Assembly (NCBI GenBank): GCA_963798465.1
Contig: CAWCTC010000001.1
Location: 132,315-196,314, forward strand
Reading direction: 5' to 3'
Source of the DNA: an uncultured bacterium
GTDB taxonomy: Bacteria; Patescibacteriota; Minisyncoccia; Phycocordibacterales; GWA1-40-21
Length of the DNA: 64,000 nucleotides
Position 1 is the stretch's first letter. Each line of letters opens with the position of its first letter. Below, one piece after another: positions 5,386-46,135 of this stretch. Made by a program: the position numbers and the translations under genes. The notes under the pieces are model-generated. The model was not told the origin of the DNA, made no database searches, and saw nothing but the letters and a program-made list of their open reading frames with translations.

Positions 5386-5527
5386 AATTTAGACTTGATT
5401 TTATATTGTTATCATTTTTTATTAGTATACCGGTAGGTGTACGGGTAAATATAACATACGAAAGTTGAATCAGAAAATTAAAAGTTAAAAAATTAAAATT
5501 TAGACCTTAACCGAAAATAAAAAGTGC

Positions 5528-5536
5528 TGTGGATAA
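5528..5536 (-). promoter_or_regulatory. perfect DnaA-box 9-mer (TTATCCACA on the minus strand)
   Basis: TGTGGATAA read on the plus strand, in the uvrD / M23-peptidase divergent intergenic region. Confidence 0.35.
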
Positions 5537-5781
5537 GTTGTTTGACCTCCATCGCTCAAATGGTATCATTATTCCCGTACCGCTAATGATGATTGATTGT
5601 TTAAATATGGCTTTGTTTAGCCATATTATACAGAAAAGACAGAATCCCTTTAAAAAATCGGCTTATTTTAAGAAAAAAATCTATATTTGGCTCTAAAAGC
5701 GAGAAAAACTCCAAGAGTCAGCCCATAAGTTCTAAGTTTTTAACTGTTTTCACGAAATGGTCTACGGTTTTTATTTTTACT

Positions 5782-13304: not shown

Positions 13305-13417
13305 ATTAAAATTATATTTATATATTAAATTACGACCAATGTAAATTATATCATGAATTAGTCTTTGCGAGTGAAGCGAAGCAATCCAGTTTCTAGACTG
13401 CCGCGCATTAGCTCGCA

Positions 13418-13740: not shown

Positions 13741-13842
13741 GGCTCATAAGATATCATAATAATTAGATTTTTGCAATATTTATATAAAGGACATTATTTT
13801 AACGTGTCGCAAAATATTTTGCGACATGGTAAAATATTATTA

Positions 13843-14796
13843 ATGAAACTTTCTGAACTTAAAAGACAATTTCTTGAATATACAGAAATAGAGCGCGGAC
13901 GTAGCATAAAAACCGTTGTTAATTACAATAGATATATTGATAAATTCATAGAATTTTCTGGAGATATAAGCCCCGAAAACATAAATGAAAATATGTTCCG
14001 TGAATACAGATTGTTTTTGAACAGACAGACGATAAAGCAAAACCGCGGGAAAAATTTATATCAAAGAGACGGACGTTCTGAAACTTTAAAAAAGAAAACC
14101 CAAAATTATTATCTTATCGCACTTCGTGCTTATCTGAAGTTTGCAAATAAAATCGGGATTAAAACGATATCGCCGGAAATAATAGAGCTTGCGAAAGTCG
14201 GTGAAAGATCTCTCGATCTTATTTCAAGAGATGATTTGGAAAAAATTATGAAAGGCCCGGATGTCGCGACTCTAAAAGGCTCGCGGGATAAGGCTATTTT
14301 TGAACTTTTGTTTTCAACCGGATTGCGTGTTTCCGAGCTGTGTTCTCTTCCTCGCGATATTGATTTGGACAGAGATGAATTTTCTGTTCGCGGAAAAGGA
14401 GAAAAAGTTCGTGTTGTTTTTCTTTCACAAGATGCGAAAGATGCTGTGAAAAAATATTTGGATAAAAGAGATGATATGTCCGATGCACTTTTTGTTCAGA
14501 TTGATTCACCGATAAAAAATTCTGAAAAAAAATCGAATGAAATTTCTGGAGCTCTTACTTCCCGATCCGTAGAAAGAATAATAAGATTTTATGCAATTAA
14601 AGCCGGCATTTCTAAGAAAGTTACACCGCATGTTTTAAGACATATTTTTGCCACAGATTTGCTCAGTAATGGTGCGGATTTGCGTTCTGTTCAGGCAATG
14701 CTTGGACATGCAAATATCGCCACGACTCAGATTTATACTCACATTACAGACAAACATCTCAGAGATATTCACAAAAATTTTCATGACAAAAAATAA
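13843..14796 (+). CDS. tyrosine recombinase, XerC/XerD-like
   Basis: SAM-like N-terminal domain. Catalytic residues in GLRVSEL, HVLRHIFAT and GHANIATTQIYTH. Start set at MKLSEL, 7 nt after TGGTAAAAT. Confidence 0.85.
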   Translation: MKLSELKRQFLEYTEIERGRSIKTVVNYNRYIDKFIEFSGDISPENINENMFREYRLFLNRQTIKQNRGKNLYQRDGRSETLKKKTQNYYLIALRAYLKFANKIGIKTISPEIIELAKVGERSLDLISRDDLEKIMKGPDVATLKGSRDKAIFELLFSTGLRVSELCSLPRDIDLDRDEFSVRGKGEKVRVVFLSQDAKDAVKKYLDKRDDMSDALFVQIDSPIKNSEKKSNEISGALTSRSVERIIRFYAIKAGISKKVTPHVLRHIFATDLLSNGADLRSVQAMLGHANIATTQIYTHITDKHLRDIHKNFHDKK

Positions 14797-16183: not shown

Positions 16184-16600
16184 GTTATGTCCTTTACATA
16201 ATTTCTATAGGACATATAATGATATCGGAAAATAGTTTTGATGATATAGACAAGGAATAGTATGCAACTGCTTTCCATGTCCTCCTTTTCATCATAACAA
16301 AAGTATGTTCTTTCAATGAAAGTCTAGCTAACTTTCGAAAAATCAAATAGAAATTGTTTGGTAAAAAGATTATATCTTTCCCATCCTTAAAAATTACATC
16401 ATTTATATATATTATAAAAAGTAATTAAAGGAGTATAAAATTTTTACGAGATATTATCTAATTTGTAGCCGCTCAAAAATATCGCTCAGGTATTTGGAGC
16501 GGTTTTTTATTGGAAAATAAAGAGCGAAGCGACTATATTTCCCTGTATCCTGTAAATACTCGCTGAATTTATGTATTTACAGGGTTATTTCCATACGATA

Positions 16601-17290: not shown

Positions 17291-17489
17291 GTTTTACCCA
17301 AAAAGTGTTTATTTTAAAGCCTAAATTTTTGAATATAATTCCATTTTTTATAAATTATGTTGTGATGTGTCTGATAAAAAATTGAGAGTGTCTTTGAAAA
17401 AAATTCAAAAAACTATGGAAATAATTTTTGAAATGCGAACGAAGGGGAACACAATAATTTGTAATTTGGGTCCCACCCCAAATTACAAA

Positions 17490-17679
17490 TACGGAAAACG
17501 CGCCGAGATCGCTTCGCTTATCTTCCATTACATGGACGGTATACCTTTCGTATTTTTTTACATGAGTACATGTTAAAAAATATACTCAAGGTTTTTCGAT
17601 TCCCGGACGCAAGCAAAATTGTTTGCTTGCTCACTCGCACAAATGAAAAACACTCAGAATTCTGAGTGTTTTTCATTTG
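17490..17679 (-). other. tRNA-like trailer module behind tRNA-Gly(GCC)
   Basis: 56-nt perfect palindrome at 17632-17687 that includes the acceptor 3' strand. On the minus strand it is followed by TGCGAGTG, a 9-bp hairpin, CCGGGAATCGAA (complement of the T-arm 3' half), a long A/T hairpin, ATAC, and a TGTAA-loop hairpin. Confidence 0.45.
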
Positions 17680-17750
17680 TGCGAGTGCCGGGAATCGAAC
17701 CCGGGCCCAATCCTTGGCAAGGACTAGTTCTACCATTAAACCACACTCGC
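17680..17750 (-). tRNA. tRNA-Gly (anticodon GCC)
   Basis: Manual cloverleaf: acceptor GCGAGTG/CACTCGC, anticodon loop TTGCCAA, T-arm CCGGG-TTCGATT-CCCGG. No encoded CCA. Confidence 0.9.
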
Positions 17751-17898: not shown

Positions 17899-18342
17899 AT
17901 GAAAAAATGTTCAAAGTGTAAAAAAGAAAAATCAGATGATGAATTTAATTTTAAAAATAAAGGTTTAAAATTACGACAGTGTCAGTGTAAAGAATGTACT
18001 AGATTATTAATAAAAAATCATTATAATGAGAATAAACAGTATTATTTTAGTAAAGCTAAAAAAAGAAATTTAGAAATTAAAACAAACATTGTTAAATATT
18101 TACAAAATTACTTATCAAATAAGTCATGTATTGATTGTGGAGAGTCAGATATTGCAGTTCTTGAATTTGATCACACAAATCGATCAAAAAAATTTAAAGC
18201 TGTTTCAACTCTCATAAGATGTGGTTACCCAATGGAGGTAATACTGGAGGAAATAAGTAAATGTGATATTAGATGTGCGAACTGTCATAGGAGAAAGACG
18301 TCAAAAGATTTTAAATGGCTTAAAACAATAATGCCCCTGTAG
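17899..18342 (+). CDS. HNH (His-Me finger) endonuclease
   Basis: CxxC pairs, LEFDH, and CANCHRRKT motif. The last 10 nt overlap the 5' end of tRNA-Arg. Confidence 0.7.
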   Translation: MKKCSKCKKEKSDDEFNFKNKGLKLRQCQCKECTRLLIKNHYNENKQYYFSKAKKRNLEIKTNIVKYLQNYLSNKSCIDCGESDIAVLEFDHTNRSKKFKAVSTLIRCGYPMEVILEEISKCDIRCANCHRRKTSKDFKWLKTIMPL

Positions 18343-21557: not shown

Positions 21558-21628
21558 CGGAGTGTAGTGTAACGGTAGCATTCGTGCTTTGGGAGCATGC
21601 GATCCGGGTTCGAATCCCGGCACTCCGA
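21558..21628 (+). tRNA. tRNA-Pro (anticodon TGG)
   Basis: Acceptor CGGAGTG/CACTCCG, anticodon loop TTTGGGA, T-arm CCGGG-TTCGAAT-CCCGG. Confidence 0.9.
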
Positions 21629-21836
21629 CAAAAACTAAAATAACCTTCAATTGAAGGTTATTTTAGTTTTTGTCGGAGTGTTCAAAGTGCTGGGAGCACT
21701 TTGAAAGGGATTCGAAGCCCGATTGTGTATTTTTTACAAGTTTAATAACGAAGTAAAAAATCCAATCGGGATACTGGTCGTGTAACGACCGAAATTCCCG
21801 GCAAATCTGGATTGGAAGTTTCGAAACTCCCGGCGA
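21629..21836 (+). other. tRNA-like trailer module behind tRNA-Pro
   Basis: 60-nt perfect palindrome at 21621-21680 that incorporates the acceptor strand. It is followed by CGGAGTG, a hairpin with loop TGGGA, GGGATTCGAA, a long hairpin CCCGATTG...CAATCGGG, ATAC, the hairpin GGTCG-TGTAA-CGACC, and GAAATTCCCGGCA. Confidence 0.45.
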
Positions 21837-23035: not shown

Positions 23036-23106
23036 GCGGGCATAGTTTAGTGGTAAAACAACAGTTTTCCAAACTGTGGTTGGGTGTTCGATTCACCCTG
23101 CCCGCA
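23036..23106 (+). tRNA. tRNA-Gly (anticodon TCC)
   Basis: Acceptor GCGGGCA/TGCCCGC, anticodon stem ACAGT/ACTGT with loop TTTCCAA, T-arm GGGTG-TTCGATT-CACCC. Confidence 0.9.
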
Positions 23107-23308
23107 CAAATGAAATAACCAACTTTTTTAAGTTGGTTATTTCATTTGTCGAGGCAAGCGAACAAACTGCTTTGTTCGTGTGGGTGAATCGAAAGACTTT
23201 TCCATATGAGCGAAGCGAAGCAGAAAAGTACCTGGCTACGTCGTAGCAGATTCACCCTGCCCGCACAAATGAAAAATCACTCAGTTTTCTGAGTGATTTT
23301 TCATTTTG
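23107..23308 (+). other. tRNA-like trailer module behind tRNA-Gly(TCC)
   Basis: Hairpin at 23107-23148. GGGTGAATC (23182-23190) pairs with GATTCACCC (23249-23257), enclosing GAAAGAC and two hairpins. The module ends with a direct repeat of the tRNA 3' end (23249-23265) followed by a second hairpin (23266-23308). Confidence 0.5.
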
Positions 23309-23348
23309 TAATGATTAACACATTTATTTTTTGTGCTATTATTTAATT

Positions 23349-24302
23349 ATGGAAAAACTAAAAACACAGGAAACTTTGGACTTGGAAATGATTGAGACTA
23401 CAGTTGAGGAAATAAAAAATCGTCCAGAAAATAGAAGAATTGATCCGAAGGATTTTTATGAAAGCGGATTATTTTCTAAAAAGTTGATTGATCATGATAT
23501 AGAAGATGTAGAAGTAAAACAAAAGGAAATACTTAATCAGAAAGCTGGCATGTCTGAATATCAGAAGAGCAGAAATAAAATTGCAGAGTTTGTTGAGGTT
23601 TCCATTCCAGAAGCAATCAGAAATCTTGGATGGCTTGGAGAAAATGTAAATGTGATAAGACCTTCCGATTGGGATGATTATTTTAGAGGAATTGATAATG
23701 TCGTGCAGATGTTCCCAGATGAAATAATAGAGGATGAAAATGATTTAAAATGTATTGGATTTTCTATTGATTTTACAATATCTGAAAAATCAGCCCTAGA
23801 TAAAGTTTTTGAAGCGTCGCTAGCCATTGCTCGTGGAAAAGTTCCGTCAATGCAATATTTTAGTGCTGATATTAAAACAAAAGATGGAGATAAAAACATA
23901 AAACTTAGAGATTTTAAAATTCCTAGAATAGTCATGTCTTGTCCAGATGATGTTCTGAATAAATCAAAAAATGATTTATTAAATTACGAAAAAAATCCAG
24001 ATGATGAAAATATAAAAGAAAAAGCCAAAGACTGTGTATTAAGATATCATTTTATAAAGGAAACATTATCTCAATTAGTTTTTTTTACTGAATTAGCAGA
24101 AAAATTAGGGAATACTGCAGCTAGAGATGTATATAATAGTTCATTGGAATCATTTAAAATGATTGTTGAAGAGCAAGGCATTGATGATGATTTGATTGAA
24201 GAGAAAACTGGTAAAATTTCTGGTCTAGTAGGAAATTTTGATTTGGAAGCAAATCATGGACAATGGATCGAAATATTAAAAGTAATGGCAAAAAATAAAT
24301 AA
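23349..24302 (+). CDS. hypothetical protein
   Basis: 317-aa intact ORF, acidic, with no recognisable motif. Start set at MEKLK. Confidence 0.5.
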   Translation: MEKLKTQETLDLEMIETTVEEIKNRPENRRIDPKDFYESGLFSKKLIDHDIEDVEVKQKEILNQKAGMSEYQKSRNKIAEFVEVSIPEAIRNLGWLGENVNVIRPSDWDDYFRGIDNVVQMFPDEIIEDENDLKCIGFSIDFTISEKSALDKVFEASLAIARGKVPSMQYFSADIKTKDGDKNIKLRDFKIPRIVMSCPDDVLNKSKNDLLNYEKNPDDENIKEKAKDCVLRYHFIKETLSQLVFFTELAEKLGNTAARDVYNSSLESFKMIVEEQGIDDDLIEEKTGKISGLVGNFDLEANHGQWIEILKVMAKNK

Positions 24303-32001: not shown

Positions 32002-32205
32002 CAAATTTTTTATAAAAATTTGGGCAGCTTAAGGAAGCACCTGCGTGCTTTCGTGTTGGAATCGAAAGACTTTTCCTTATCGAATGAGCAAAGCGAAATG
32101 AGATGGAAAAGTACCTGGCTATGTAGTAGCCGATTCCAACTCAAGCGCACAACGCAAGCAATTAAAAATCGCCGGTTATCTATAAGGCGATTTTTTCTTG
32201 CGTTG
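32002..32205 (+). other. tRNA-like trailer module behind tRNA-Lys
   Basis: Hairpin at 32002-32022. GCAGCTTAAG resembles the acceptor 5' strand. GTTGGAATC (32055-32063) pairs with GATTCCAAC (32132-32140), enclosing GAAAGAC, the ACTTTTCC/GGAAAAGT hairpin and the GGCTA-TGTAG-TAGCC hairpin. The module ends TCAAGCGCA (32141-32149) and is followed by a hairpin at 32150-32205. Confidence 0.5.
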
Positions 32206-32350
32206 TGCGGACCGGACGAACGGAGTGAGGAGGTCGGGCTGTAACTTTGCTTTGAGTTCACGAAAAGCAAAAGTTATAGCCACAGTGAAATCAAAGTTTC
32301 AAATGAAGATAGTTTAAGAAGACTCTGATTGGAATGAACCAGTTTTTAGA

Positions 32351-37583: not shown

Positions 37584-37667
37584 TAATAAAAACCGGCGAT
37601 GGTAATATCGCCGGTTTTTTCTTTTGCACAACTAGCAGCAAGATGTTATAAGAGTTATTATATATCT

Positions 37668-38935
37668 ATGCAAAAAATAATTTCAAAAATTAAAAAATTA
37701 ATGCCGAAAAAACTGTGGCAAAAGCTTCAGCCGATTTATCATTACAAGCTTGCAGTTCTCGGCGCGATTATTTACAGATTTCCATCAAAAGAAATAAAAG
37801 TTGTCGGCGTGACTGGAACGAAAGGAAAAACTTCATCAGTGGAGTTCGTGAATGCGATTTTGGAAGAAGCTGGCAAAAAAACAGCTGTCGCCGGAACTTT
37901 GAGATTTAAAATTGGAAATGAATCGAAACCGAATTTATACAAGATGACGATGCCGGGAAGAATTTTCATACAAAAATTTTTACGAAAAGCAGTTCTCGCC
38001 GGATGCGAATATGCAATAATTGAAATTTCTTCCGAAGCTGCGAAACAATACAGAAATAAATTTATCGATCTTGATGCTCTGATTTTTACAAATCTTGCGC
38101 CTGAACATATTGAGTCGCACGGAAGTTATGAAAAATATGTCGAGGCAAAACTTGCGATTGCAAAAGAATTGGAAAAATCTTCAAAAGAAAACAAAGCGAT
38201 GATCGTGAATGCCGACGACAAAGAAGGAGAAAAATTTTTGAAAATAAATGTTGGAAAATAAAATTACTTATTCTTTGGCCGAAGCAAAAGATATTTCTGC
38301 GTCGGAAGATTTCACAAAATTTACTTACAAAGGAGTAAAGATGGAAACAACACTTCCGGGAAAATTTAATATTTATAATATGCTCGGCGCGATAAAATAT
38401 GCCGAACATGAAAAAATAGATTTGGAAATTGTAAAAAAAGCATTTTTAAAATTGAAAGAAATAAAAGGGCGAGCGCAAAGAATTGAAGAAGGGCAGGATT
38501 TCAAAGTTGTCGTTGATTATGCTCACACGCCGGATTCTTTGAAAGCGATTTATGAAACATATCTTGGAAGTAAAAAAATCGTGGTGCTTGGAAATTGCGG
38601 TGGTGGCCGTGACAAATGGAAAAGAAAAGAAATGGCAGAAATTGCAGACAATTATTGCGAAGCGGTGATTCTCACAGATGAAGATCCATACGATGACGAT
38701 CCGCGAGAAATTGTGGAAGACATGGCGAAATATTTTAAAAATAAAAAACCGGAAATAATAATGGACAGGAGAGAAGCGATTGCGAAAGCATTTCAAAAAT
38801 CAAAAAGTGGAGACGTTGTGATAATCACAGGAAAGGGAACGGATCCGTACATCATGAGAAAAAATGGTGAGAAAGAAAAATGGAGCGATGCGGAAGTGGC
38901 GAGAGGAAGAATTGAAAAAATTGTTGAAAAAGTAA
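37668..38935 (+). pseudogene. murE: Mur ligase (MurE-like UDP-MurNAc-tripeptide synthetase) with 2 frameshifts
   Basis: GVTGTKGKTS P-loop in ORF 37599-38261 and DYAHTPDSL in ORF 38248-39048. The join ...FLKINV|ENKITYSL needs a 1-nt shift near 38245-38255. The annotated C-terminus reads through the terminator, whereas a shifted frame ends EELKKLLKK-TAA at 38933-38935. Confidence 0.75.
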
Positions 38936-38990
38936 AATACAAAAAGGGCGGCCCGCTAAGCGGGCCGCCCTTTTTGTATTTTACTTTTTT
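38927..38990. terminator. long GC-rich stem-loop terminator
   Basis: GTAAAATACAAAAAGGGCGGCCCGC-TAA-GCGGGCCGCCCTTTTTGTATTTTAC. Confidence 0.8.
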
Positions 38991-39014
38991 TAGCTTTGGC
39001 TTTAAACTTCAGCT

Positions 39015-39920
39015 ATGCCAGAACTTCCAGAAGTGCAAACAACTGTAAATATTTTAAACAGCAAAGTCAAAGGACTTTCTATTTTAGACGTGTGGACGGA
39101 TTATGATTCCTCATTTCACGCCGGAAAAAATAATATAAAGGACAAAAAATATTTTCCGATATTCAGAAAAGAAATTTTAAATAAAAAGATTTTAGACGTA
39201 AAAAGAATGGCAAAAAATGTTTTGATTAACGTTTCAGGAAACAAGACTATTCTCGTGCACATGAAGATGACGGGAAAACTTTTATACGGAAAATATAAAT
39301 TTTCAGACGGAAAATGGCTTCCCCCGATTGGCACCTCGCTCGCGGATCCGTATAACCGTTTCATCCATCTTGCGTTTAGTTTGTCGGATAAAAATACTTT
39401 GGTGCTTTCCGATGCAAGAAAATTTGCAAAAGTTTATGTTTTTGAAACAGACAAAATGTCCGAGATAGCTGACCTTGAGAAGCTCGGTCCGGAACCTCTG
39501 GAGAAAAGTTTTACGTATGAGATTTTCAAAGAAAGACTGCAAAAAAAATCGAATGGAAAAATCAAAACGGTGCTGATGGATCAGGAAATAATTTCCGGAA
39601 TAGGAAATATTTATTCCGACGAAGCTTTGTGGGCTTCCTCAATTCATCCGCTGCAAAAAGTAAAAGATATTTCTGAGACGCAATTGAAATTACTTTTTAA
39701 AAACATTATTAAAATTTTAACCGAGTCGATAAAAATCGGCGGAGATTCAATGTCGGATTACAGAAATCCGCTTGGTGGAAAAGGCGGTTATCAGAATTTG
39801 CACAAAGCATACGGGCAAGAAGGAAAAAAATGTCAGAAAAAAGATGGAGGAATTATTAAAAGAATAAAAGTCGGCGGAAGGAGCGCATGTTTTTGTCCGG
39901 TGCATCAGAAATTAAATTAA
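39015..39920 (+). CDS. mutM: formamidopyrimidine-DNA glycosylase
   Basis: N-terminal MPELPEV, H2TH region, and a C-terminal zinc finger (CQKK...CFCPVHQ). Confidence 0.9.
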   Translation: MPELPEVQTTVNILNSKVKGLSILDVWTDYDSSFHAGKNNIKDKKYFPIFRKEILNKKILDVKRMAKNVLINVSGNKTILVHMKMTGKLLYGKYKFSDGKWLPPIGTSLADPYNRFIHLAFSLSDKNTLVLSDARKFAKVYVFETDKMSEIADLEKLGPEPLEKSFTYEIFKERLQKKSNGKIKTVLMDQEIISGIGNIYSDEALWASSIHPLQKVKDISETQLKLLFKNIIKILTESIKIGGDSMSDYRNPLGGKGGYQNLHKAYGQEGKKCQKKDGGIIKRIKVGGRSACFCPVHQKLN

Positions 39921-39957: not shown

Positions 39958-40010
39958 ATTTTTCATTTTCCTAACCCTAAAGGATAAGGAAAATATATTC
40001 GCTTCGCTCA

Positions 40011-40580
40011 TTATTTTCCTAAAATTTTCAGTGCCGCCTTTATTCTGTCTCCAGTTTTTGTAATTGTTTTTTCTACATCGCGAAGTGCATCACGTGCATC
40101 TTTCGGATTGTAGCCGAGAGCTTTCAAAGCTTCGATTGCGTCTATTTCATCGCGAAGTGAAATATCATTTTCATCACCTGATATGCCGACCTTATCTTTT
40201 AGCTCGAGCACCATTTTGTCTGCAATCTTTTTTCCAATTCCTGAAACTTTTGTAAGATGGGAAGTGTCGCCGGTTGAAATTGCTCGCTTGAGTGCTGGAA
40301 CAGAACTGATGTTCAAAACATTTACGGCAGTTTTCGGACCGATTCCAGAAATAGAAATTATCATTTCAAAAAATTGCAATTCTTCTTCTGAAAGAAATCC
40401 ATAAAGATCGAGTGCGTCTTCTCTGACGACTAAATGAGTGAACAAGGAAATCTTTTCTCCTTTTTGCGCGACTTCTTTTGTTTCTGCTGTCGTGTAAATT
40501 TTAAAACCGATTCCGCCGACTCCGACAGTTAGAAATTTAACATTTGTGTCCCAAACTATACCTTCTATTTTTGATATCAT
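40011..40580 (-). CDS. ruvA: Holliday junction DNA helicase subunit RuvA
   Basis: MISKIEGIV..., two HhH motifs (ISGIGPKTA and VSGIGKKIA), and C-terminal domain III. Confidence 0.9.
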   Translation of the reverse strand: MISKIEGIVWDTNVKFLTVGVGGIGFKIYTTAETKEVAQKGEKISLFTHLVVREDALDLYGFLSEEELQFFEMIISISGIGPKTAVNVLNISSVPALKRAISTGDTSHLTKVSGIGKKIADKMVLELKDKVGISGDENDISLRDEIDAIEALKALGYNPKDARDALRDVEKTITKTGDRIKAALKILGK

Positions 40581-41511: not shown

Positions 41512-41761
41512 TTCTGCACCTCCAATTTTTTGTAAAACATCATTCTTACCTATTATAGCATTAATTACGTTAATGTCAAGAGTAGTAAAAATAACACATA
41601 TTCAAGGGTGTTTTTAATTGTACTGTGGTCAGGAATAATTTTCTCGTCGTCACTCGAAAATTTTCACTACCCTGACTCGTTTGTTTTGCTTGCTAGCAAA
41701 ACATAACTCCGTCTCGCACATGTATCAAAAAACACGAAGCAGTTCGTGTTTTTCTATCATG

Positions 41762-45958: not shown

Positions 45959-46135
45959 CAACGACAAATAAAAACAGCCTGGGAAGGCTGTTTTTATTTT
46001 GGCGTCATGGATGAAAGGTGAGATTCGAAAGACGGAGCCGACACGAACGATAGTGAATGAATCGGCGAGTCGGGGTCGCAAGTTCTTATGAGCGAAGCGA
46101 ATTAGAAACTTGGACCGAATCTCACCTCTTCCGCA
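45959..46135 (+). other. tRNA-like trailer module behind tRNA-Ser
   Basis: Hairpin AAATAAAAACAGCC...GGCTGTTTTTATTT. GGTGAGATTC (46017-46026) pairs with GAATCTCACC (46117-46126), enclosing GAAAGAC and hairpins that include a GAGCGAAGCGAA cap. A perfect 19-nt direct repeat of the tRNA 3' end lies at 46117-46135. Confidence 0.5.

Follow-up and report, generated by a model that had tools for sequence, protein, structure and literature searches.

For integrases of the T-loop class, the expected pattern is a direct repeat that spans the tRNA from its T loop to its 3′ end. The attC sites of integrons and the attP site of CTX phage, which uses XerCD, are recombination sites that work as folded single strands. 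tRNA-like structures are also found in RNAs, among them the mascRNA of MALAT1, the tRNA-like domain of transfer-messenger RNA (tmRNA), bacterial YrlA, viral tRNA-like structures and engineered 'tRNA scaffolds'. The element described here shares features with all three groups. It lies behind tRNA-Gly(TCC) in a stretch of 64,000 nucleotides (nt) of contig CAWCTC010000001.1 (assembly GCA_963798465.1), which was analysed as a whole and is called the window. The Gly(TCC) module is one copy of a large, Patescibacteria-wide family of protein-less modules of about 110–250 nt, situated at the 3′ ends of tRNA genes. The preferred explanation, tentative and given somewhat less than an even chance, is that these are cargo-less mobile insertion modules which target tRNA 3′ ends and regenerate them. 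The element was rated as lying outside the known kinds, with an inferred mechanism.

The Gly(TCC) locus is made of the tRNA 3′ end in direct orientation, a trailer hairpin (T1), the tRNA 3′ end inverted, a three-way-junction core, the tRNA 3′ end in direct orientation again (the 'tail') and a second hairpin (T2). The inverted 3′ end is split by a hairpin, H0, exactly at the T-stem/acceptor junction. The core consists of helices P2 and P3 and junction strands J12 and J23, and is closed by helix P1 (coordinates in Table 1). The source sequence is the 3′ part of tRNA-Gly(TCC), nt 54–73 (window 23087–23106). An earlier note, made from the letters of the DNA alone, had described a direct repeat of the tRNA end. 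The two copies are identical at 26/26 positions, and the repeat extends to 58 nt at 76% identity because related hairpins follow both copies. The 133 nt of DNA between the repeats contain no open reading frame (ORF). The exact complementarity reported between GGGTGAATC (23182–23190) and GATTCACCC (23249–23257) was found as claimed. With the real tRNA it is longer than those 9 nt and reaches 12 nt, GGGTGAATCGAA against TTCGATTCACCC (23087–23098), the latter being the whole T loop and the T-stem 3′ strand of tRNA-Gly(TCC). The hairpin that had been placed at 23107–23148 is present as T1, which is larger and extends into the tRNA: the left arm comprises the acceptor 3′ strand and trailer, and the right arm ends in CGAGGCA (23150–23156), a degenerate complement of the acceptor strand. 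T1 looks like an intrinsic terminator. The other hairpins of that description, CGAACAAA/TTTGTTCG (23159–23178), ACTTTTC/GAAAAGT, GCTAC/GTAGC and the one ending the module (given as 23266–23308, now T2), were all recovered.

The distribution of the module was determined with a pattern scan, in which 20 bases taken from the junctions were matched against one genome per species. Among the 41 loci obtained, 28 belonged to Patescibacteria (Paceibacterota, Nomurabacteria, Saccharibacteria, Minisyncoccia). The remaining 13 were chance matches in other phyla; none had a tRNA upstream and most read as coding sequence. A tRNA was present on the same strand 43–256 nt upstream in 27 cases, and the module arm fitted the T stem of that tRNA. 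Patescibacteria matches beyond these 27 were contig ends or special cases. The host tRNAs are of at least 12 species: Gly (GCC, TCC, CCC), Lys, Arg (several anticodons), Glu, Trp, His, Leu, Pro, Thr and Cys. More copies, tandem ones included, were found in the retrieved loci with a covariance model.

The earlier note had stated that the helix and tail change with the neighbouring tRNA. This was borne out in 35 modules, in which the 12-nt inverted copy fits the local tRNA at a mean of 11.5/12 positions. For a test independent of core type, the reverse complement of tRNA nt 54–65 was sought up to 320 nt downstream of the tRNAs of loci L001–L045 and the window. Module-bearing tRNAs gave 12/12 or 11/12, whereas upstream controls and module-less tRNAs gave 6–10/12. 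The match between module and tRNA is far beyond chance. The complement of the acceptor 3′ strand stands a constant 25 nt before the inverted copy, and H0 keeps its place at the T-stem/acceptor junction, 25 nt upstream of the inverted copy, in nearly all modules. Tails match 17/17 in 14 tRNA–module pairs (first 45 loci and the window). Where the T stem of the tRNA holds a G.U pair (His, Trp in two lineages, Arg-CCT), the module holds the Watson–Crick complement of the 3′ strand; likewise, at the His acceptor stem, the module complements the 3′ strand and not the tRNA 5′ strand. The module is therefore not a duplicated tRNA: its 5′ half complements the tRNA 3′ end and does not repeat the tRNA 5′ half. 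The acceptor complement scored at least 6/7 in 21 of the 35 modules and the acceptor part of the tail at least 7/8 in 23 of the 35. Several modules have an acceptor complement without an intact tail acceptor, or the reverse, so that the internal acceptor helix is not consistently maintained.

A structure alignment was made from 26 modules. In this alignment 92.8% of the cells were paired, and cells changed on both sides numbered 123 versus 36 ± 5 in shuffles; these values collapsed once the partners were slid by 1–3 columns. Covariation upheld the helices, since all pairs of H0 and the top pairs of P2 and P3 covary. In divergent members P3 changes compensatorily from GGCUA/UAGCC to GAAUA/UAUUC or GAACC/GGUUC, and the P2 base does so too. 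The junction strands GAAAG and ACCU and the GUR triloop of P3 are conserved; the GAA of GAAAG is the complement of the T-loop TTC, and the usual P2 cap is GA-RC-GNA-GY-GA. At least three unrelated cores (A, B and D) occupy one scaffold, in which each fills the one position between corresponding arms, often next to the same H0. The type B core reads ..UCGAAAG-NC-GGA-hairpin-GAG-GN-GGGGUCG-hairpin-GUGACCGA.. and shows compensatory changes from GAC/GUC to GCC/GGC; the type D core reads ..UCGAACAGCGGAGUC..GACGAGCUGGUGCC..GGGAGAU... No relevant match to A, B or D modules was obtained with the Rfam models, including those of self-cleaving ribozymes and riboswitches, at gathering and permissive thresholds. 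The core is deleted or very short in L035 and L031. The conservation of the fold implies that something recognises it. Cores are more alike within genomes than between genomes (mean 86% versus 76%), and several pairs behind different tRNAs are 95–100% identical; H0 and the arms of such cores differ and stay tRNA-specific. This likeness indicates that cores move or undergo gene conversion inside genomes.

Two side observations concern the cores. Type D, of about 130 nt with several hairpins, was seen behind tRNA-Gly(TCC) in L047–L050 and L058, for example on the minus strand of L048, just downstream of the tRNA at 5525–5595. The P2 cap motif GAGCGAAGCGAA is also the loop of A/T-stemmed intergenic hairpins away from tRNAs, at 16511–16545 (+), 39990–40025 (−) and 13360–13385 (+) of the window, in which it is enriched (14 matches with up to 2 mismatches versus 5.2 expected).

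Relatives were compared for empty sites, as the earlier note had proposed. Metagenomes scanned for the exact 25-nt 3′ end of tRNA-Gly(TCC) yielded 15 contigs, which together with the window and L042 made a set of 17 alleles with identical 3′ end. Eight of them are empty. The filled alleles carry type A (2), B (2), D (3), D+A (1) or D+B (1). The nearest pairs by upstream sequence each join a filled and an empty allele: the window (A) and L056 (empty) at 88% identity, and L047 (D+A) and L055 (empty) at 93%. In the NadK–RNHCP–tRNA-Gly synteny, Gly and Pro modules are present in L042/L043 (NadK 87% identical) and cleanly absent from L044/L045 (76% identical); an exact look-up of the RNHCP protein next to the tRNA gave no record. 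The first 12 nt of the trailer behind the module tail of the window equal the trailer of the empty L056 (12/12), and the hairpin after the L042 module resembles the sole terminator of L044, the distal terminator being the ancestral one. Such an old trailer in distal position would fit a unit that arrives with a tRNA end and hairpin of its own and displaces the old end downstream. Downstream genes also differ among the alleles, and the tRNA-Gly(TCC) site is therefore a general hot spot. The next gene was seen to encode a 323-aa protein without family match in the window (23331–24302), L055, L056 and L057, and a kinase-like protein in L042 (2767–3486) and L047. The gene for the 323-aa protein begins within the tRNA trailer in L056 and L057.

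Tandem units were found in L014, L039, L047 and L058, and tails are often truncated or decayed while the cores are still intact. Some modules are associated with longer DNA. In L038 (2527–4400), two near-identical copies of 'trailer + type B module' bracket 1.5 kb with two ORFs (236 and 176 aa), for which Pfam and NCBIfam searches gave no family match, recombinase included; the arrangement looks like a circle integrated through the module. In L020 and L030, about 1.1 kb separates the A module from a distal P3 remnant with the Arg(GCG) tail. In a search for large islands, a second distant copy of the tRNA tail was found in these cases (L038 and L020/L030) and nowhere else. As a side observation, the minus strand of L020 (5440–6480), and also L030 and L003, hold a cassette, placed between a module and a distal tail, in which one small ORF resembles a membrane protein and another a type IV pilin (N-terminus KKGFTLIELLVVIAIIG); the cassette's promoter-like leader CTTGCAGGTAGATATCTATCGTAGTAAACT is found again in a single genome bin, behind two different tRNAs. 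Presence and absence, tandem accretion, decay, cargo and within-genome homogenisation together point to a mobile or at least rapidly turning-over element. The earlier suggestion of very small tRNA-targeting insertions is thus the one that fits best, on account of the empty sites, tandems, decay and cargo; these are not random scars, the interior being conserved and covarying.

A repeat that spans the tRNA from the T loop onwards, variable regions downstream (with different genes after the same tRNA-Gly) and cargo bracketed in some loci by module copies are also what deletion scars would show, if islands or prophages with an integrase had entered tRNA T loops and left attL and attR near each other. 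This origin is already largely refuted and is considered very improbable. The interior is conserved and covarying and is common to many tRNAs across phylum-level distances, an integrase gene or its remnant adjoins none of the modules examined, and the cargo had no Pfam or NCBIfam match to recombination proteins. Among 2.9 million viral contigs no module was found, three scans giving nothing or one chance coding match.

In the proposed insertion mechanism, the unit would correspond to 23090–23248 (159 nt). It would start at G57 of the T loop with its own tRNA 3′ end and trailer hairpin or terminator, would continue with the Watson–Crick complement of the same 3′ end, divided by H0 at the T-stem/acceptor junction, and would end with the structured core (type A), whose last base adjoins the next copy of G57. 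Insertion would take place between C56 and G57 and would leave the tRNA intact, because a new 3′ end comes with the unit. The 3′ end already in place would be displaced downstream as the tail (23249–23265), hence the direct repeat. Repeated insertion would produce tandem arrays, and recombination between repeats would lead to unit loss. On the tRNA-sense strand, folded as single-stranded DNA or RNA, the inverted copy would pair with the left end of the unit and rebuild a duplex copy of the target, and the fold would join both unit ends at the three-way junction. When the 159-nt unit (G57 to the end of P3) was folded as single-stranded DNA, the comparative structure was predicted exactly (−46.8 kcal/mol, z = −11.4), with the inverted copy paired to the tRNA-end copy. 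The mobility of the unit, its left boundary at C56/G57 and the role of the fold as a recognition signal for recombination machinery were inferred from these data.

A more specific version, judged rather unlikely, makes the module a self-contained, target-programmed integration device. The fold (H0 and core) would be the machine itself or a handle for a host enzyme, for example the Xer-type recombinase of the window, and the inverted copy would be a guide that rebuilds a duplex replica of the tRNA 3′ end in the folded single strand. Specificity for any tRNA would then reside in about 20 nucleotides instead of a protein, and with its A, B and D cores the family would have solved one and the same reaction in different ways.

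Several observations weigh against a mobile unit or against its proposed boundary. No recombinase, transposase or reverse transcriptase linked to the modules was found; the one candidate in the window, an ordinary-looking Xer-type gene, is about 3 kb from the nearest module (Gly-GCC, which ends at 17434) and about 8 kb from the Gly(TCC) module. No excised form of the unit was seen. The insertion model leaves unexplained how arms for a new tRNA are acquired, and the likeness of cores within genomes could be due to gene conversion and not to movement. Three elaborate cores with conserved junction nucleotides look closer to functional RNAs than to the simple hairpins usually recognised by transposases. 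The filled L047 and the empty L055 have an identical first (proximal) terminator. The left boundary is therefore ambiguous, as this pair fits an entry point behind the terminator and not one in the T loop. A complete type A module with a Glu-type hairpin is located behind a protein gene in L011 (780–1010, minus strand), with no tRNA within 4.4 kb upstream. In about 10 compact modules no hairpin separates the module from its tRNA, and the tail is followed by a terminator; compact Gly, Thr and Lys modules, which lack a preceding terminator, would be co-transcribed. By eye, the protein gene in L011 resembles one for an inositol monophosphatase.

The compact modules also speak for the main rival explanation, possible though doubtful, in which the module is a co-transcribed, tRNA-scaffolded RNA useful to the host and possibly a switch on the neighbouring tRNA. 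It would be an L-shaped mimic with an acceptor helix and an extended T stem, H0 standing in for the D and anticodon arms, cut out by RNase P and a 3′ nuclease, and would present the A, B or D core at the T-loop position as a protein-binding RNA, a decoy for tRNA-acting enzymes or toxins, an aptamer or a ribozyme. In the switch variant, the inverted copy would pair with the tRNA 3′ end or with the tail and so control maturation of the neighbouring tRNA. Covarying helices, conserved junctions and GA-rich motifs are typical of structured RNAs, and the structure is kept by compensatory changes across distant lineages (Lys modules, window versus L028). The minimum-free-energy fold of the tRNA-plus-module transcript is swapped, with the inverted copy invading the tRNA 3′ end, as pairing in a switch would have it; the module alone folded as RNA was weakly better than shuffles (z = −3.0), and the comparative structure was not recovered. 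A host RNA also accords poorly with the at least 17 of 37 modules that stand behind a terminator-like hairpin with a T run, with the frequent loss of the internal acceptor helix, and with tails that decay or are truncated beside intact cores. The closest relatives lack modules, the module type varies at the same tRNA, and copies occur in tandem, deleted or flanking cargo.

Base-pair types were also counted on the tRNA-sense strand. G.U exceeds A.C (11 versus 6) and two G.U pairs persist in type B, points in favour of an RNA; the rarity of G.U pairs overall (about 1.7%) is a point for DNA. A decision on the strand, or between RNA and DNA, from the G.U and A.C counts was dropped because the events were too few. 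DNA mini-hairpins d(GCGNAGC) are reportedly exceptionally stable, according to work of Hirao and colleagues in the 1990s, and the P2 cap heptamers GCGAAGC, GCGTAGC and GCGCAGC are presumably such mini-hairpins, which again favours DNA. The neighbouring terminators carry a UUCG loop, which is typical of RNA.

Two readings of the earlier note concerned transcripts. For the acceptor/T-arm mimic, the shape was right: a 7-nt acceptor-like strand, 2 nt, a 9-bp hairpin, 2–3 nt and an extended T-stem-like helix. Counted against it were the 5′ strands complementing the tRNA 3′ strand, the frequent loss of the acceptor helix, the failure of tRNA models to see the module and the position of about half of the modules behind a terminator-like hairpin. 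Punctuation for leaderless mRNAs was not supported, as the usual next feature is another hairpin or module and not a start codon.

The plan is repeated behind most of the seven tRNAs of the window. It had been credited to five of them, a count that is too low, since six carry a module and tRNA-Arg(TCG) alone does not. The covariance model recognised four window copies, all behind tRNAs, and nothing else convincing; the Gly(TCC) copy scored 105.8 bits and the Lys, Gly(GCC) and Pro copies as listed in Table 1. The tail of the Lys module is perfect in the near-identical relative L018. The Gly(GCC) module has a perfect palindrome over the acceptor strand, an intact H0, an enlarged P2, extra hairpins and a decayed tail (17434–17450). 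The Pro module has a perfect 60-nt palindrome (21621–21680) and a decayed tail (21791–21803); it is orthologous to the L042/L043 copies and missing from L044. The type B core behind tRNA-Ser(TGA) reads GAAAGACGGAG..GAGUCGGGGUCG..GGACC, with matches of 12/12 and 16/16 to the tRNA, and the arms of the Arg(GCG) remnant have lost their match to the tRNA. Behind the Lys module, 32150–32290 contains a second long hairpin that includes the module tail, followed by a decayed type B-like stretch (..ACGGAG..GAGGUCGGG..hairpin..). This stretch is probably an older unit of a tandem array.

Table 1. Positions of the module parts behind tRNA-Gly(TCC) and of the other modules in the window.
Feature	Position	Strand	Details
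tRNA-Gly(TCC), no encoded CCA	23036–23106	+	ARAGORN; Rfam RF00005, 72.2 bits
Direct repeat, copy 1	23090–23115	+	tRNA nt 57–73 and 9 nt of trailer
Long hairpin T1	23099–23156	+	arms 23099–23125 / 23130–23156, 27 nt, 89% complementary
Hairpin H0	23158–23179	+	GCGAACAAA / CUGC / UUUGUUCGU; 9/9 pairs covary, 97% paired
Inverted copy	23182–23193	+	GGGTGAATCGAA, Watson–Crick complement of tRNA nt 54–65; first 9 nt form helix P1 with 23249–23257
Type A three-way-junction core	23191–23248	+	J12, P2, J23, P3
J12	23191–23195		GAAAG
P2	23196–23203 / 23222–23229		cap GA-GC-GAA-GC-GA
J23	23230–23233		ACCU
P3	23234–23248		GUC triloop; 3′ end adjoins tail with zero linker
Direct repeat, copy 2 (tail)	23249–23274	+	tRNA nt 57–73 (23249–23265) and 9 nt of trailer
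Second hairpin T2	23267–23306	+	18/18 bp
Type A-like module behind tRNA-Gly(GCC)	17434–17679	−	47.3 bits
Divergent type A module behind tRNA-Pro(TGG)	21630–21803	+	26.2 bits
Type A module behind tRNA-Lys(TTT)	32003–32149	+	tail 32132–32149 with 1-nt insertion; 93.4 bits
Decayed type B-like remnant behind tRNA-Arg(GCG)	41629–41760	−	GAGUCAGGGU..CCUGACC; by eye only; resembles L019
Type B module behind tRNA-Ser(TGA)	45960–46135	+	inverted copy 46017–46029; tail 46117–46135 perfect

The palindromes at tRNA-Pro and tRNA-Gly(GCC) are perfect and spacer-less, of about 56–60 nt (21621–21680 and 17630–17686), with the centres CAATTG and GAATTC. Each begins in the acceptor 3′ strand, passes through the trailer and returns. 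An RNA hairpin does not require a perfect palindrome centre, which suggests that these two arose at the DNA level. They bear on an explanation by local generation without moving units, in which replication template switching at the terminator hairpin and at the T-loop TCGA/TTCGAA palindrome would give a direct–inverted–direct triplication, with cores acquired secondarily. Quasi-palindrome correction and gene conversion would keep the copies matched to the tRNA, and H0 and the cores would spread by gene conversion. The layout is precisely direct, inverted, direct; the inverted copy complements the 3′ strand, T-loop bases included; and the empty tRNA-Pro site of L044 has a hairpin that reaches 6 nt into the tRNA end and includes the first trailer base. 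The homogenisation of cores, and not of arms, within genomes and the first terminator common to L047 and L055 are likewise in line with it. Local generation is nevertheless thought quite improbable, as it leaves unexplained the same H0 and three cores at the same two junctions in at least 12 tRNA species of distant lineages, as well as the purifying selection on core structure. An independent origin at every tRNA is also unlikely.

The window is part of a low-GC cellular genome of the candidate phyla radiation (Patescibacteria), and a near-identical stretch exists in L018, a genome bin named 'Patescibacteria group bacterium'. Proteins encoded in the window include RNase Y, CCA-adding enzyme, NAD kinase, RsmE, RuvA, Fpg, triosephosphate isomerase, RecJ and a DD-carboxypeptidase/LD-transpeptidase fusion. 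A phage origin was rejected because of the cellular genes (RNase Y, CCA enzyme, NadK, RuvA, Fpg, triosephosphate isomerase), and comparison with a phage collection gave tRNA matches only. ARAGORN and Rfam detected seven tRNA genes, none with an encoded CCA. A Xer-type tyrosine recombinase is encoded at 13771–14796 (+), outside every module. In NCBIfam it comes closest to XerD, XerC and XerA without reaching an equivalog cut-off, and its score is far under the integron-integrase cut-off. It is the sole recombinase among the window ORFs scanned (about 40 of 62). Between tRNA-Gly(GCC) and tRNA-Arg(TCG) there is a free-standing ORF of 147 aa (17899–18342, +) with CxxC pairs and an HNH-like motif, for which Pfam and NCBIfam searches gave no match, and a GIY-YIG ORF adjoins tRNA-Pro in L044. 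Genes resembling those of homing endonucleases seem to cluster around these tRNA loci. Two overlapping ORFs (37599–38261 and 38248–39048, +) divide between them the middle and C-terminal domains of a Mur ligase, which could be a frameshift, a sequencing error or a pseudogene.

Should the modules prove mobile, no smaller element that enters tRNA genes and repairs its target would be known, and target choice would be placed in nucleic acid and not in an integrase. This would bear on programmable insertion and on the rise of tRNA genes as universal integration sites. As RNAs, they would represent three new structured RNA classes in a natural tRNA-like scaffold. To our knowledge, the RNA biology of Patescibacteria is almost unexplored. 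Under either reading, modules stand at most tRNA loci of this genome, and annotators of Patescibacteria genomes will be misled by them at tRNA 3′ ends, terminators and 'att' sites.

Known RNA classes were considered as candidates. A tRNA or tRNA pseudogene was rejected, as ARAGORN and Rfam reported only the seven true tRNAs and 23107–23308 had no tRNA match at E ≤ 10. A tmRNA was rejected because none was reported in the window by ARAGORN. A box C/D or H/ACA guide RNA was rejected by eye: there are no boxes, and the guide-like strands pair with their target without unpaired bases. Junctions were also compared by eye with the hammerhead, hairpin, twister, pistol, hepatitis delta virus and k-turn layouts, with no fit in either orientation. 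The earlier note had not recognised a described element, in agreement with Rfam 15, which has no model for the layout, and with a literature search by topic and sequence motifs, which found no description. Group I introns in Patescibacteria tRNA genes lie in the anticodon loop, at position 35/36 (PMC13011429), and are unrelated.

Each of the known systems compared has at least one defining feature that the element misses. Like tRNA-targeting islands and prophages with a tyrosine integrase of the T-loop class, and like their integrase-less derivatives, the cis-mobilizable elements (CIMEs), the module has a repeat from the T loop past the tRNA end, a replacement 3′ end that keeps the tRNA intact, tandem accretion, empty sites in close relatives and a variable neighbourhood. 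Unlike them, it measures 110–250 nt, holds no gene of any kind (an integrase included), combines an inverted target copy with a conserved three-way-junction core, and is absent from viral contigs; moreover, one core family serves at least 12 tRNAs, where an integrase system normally serves one. The tRNA-like RNAs share with it an acceptor-like helix stacked on a T-stem-like helix, a foreign domain in a tRNA frame and the adjacent real tRNA. In contrast to these RNAs, the module has no T loop or elbow, its acceptor helix is often imperfect or missing, its stems copy the neighbouring tRNA, it often stands behind a terminator and its presence is polymorphic.

The likeness to attC and CTX attP lies in an imperfect inverted repeat that is predicted to rebuild a duplex site on folding, in structure being conserved more than sequence, in one arm with protruding elements, in arrays that grow at a fixed entry point and in most units being without recombinase. 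The modules differ in that their target is a tRNA gene, not dif or attI, and in that most are gene-less; the integron R and L boxes (RYYYAAC / GTTRRRY) are absent from the module alignments, and no adjacent integron integrase with attI was found. Finally, miniature inverted-repeat transposable elements (MITEs), repetitive extragenic palindromes (REP/REPIN) and IS200/IS605 elements are, like the modules, short, non-coding, strongly folded and multi-copy, with function supplied in trans. The terminal inverted repeats and short fixed target duplication of a MITE are absent from the module, the unit ends being GATTC... and ...TAGCC and the repeat of 17–26 nt being the tRNA end, and a scan of roughly 40 of the 62 window ORFs revealed no Y1 transposase or REP-associated tyrosine transposase (HUH type). 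What sets the modules apart from all of these short elements is that every copy is tailored to its own insertion site.

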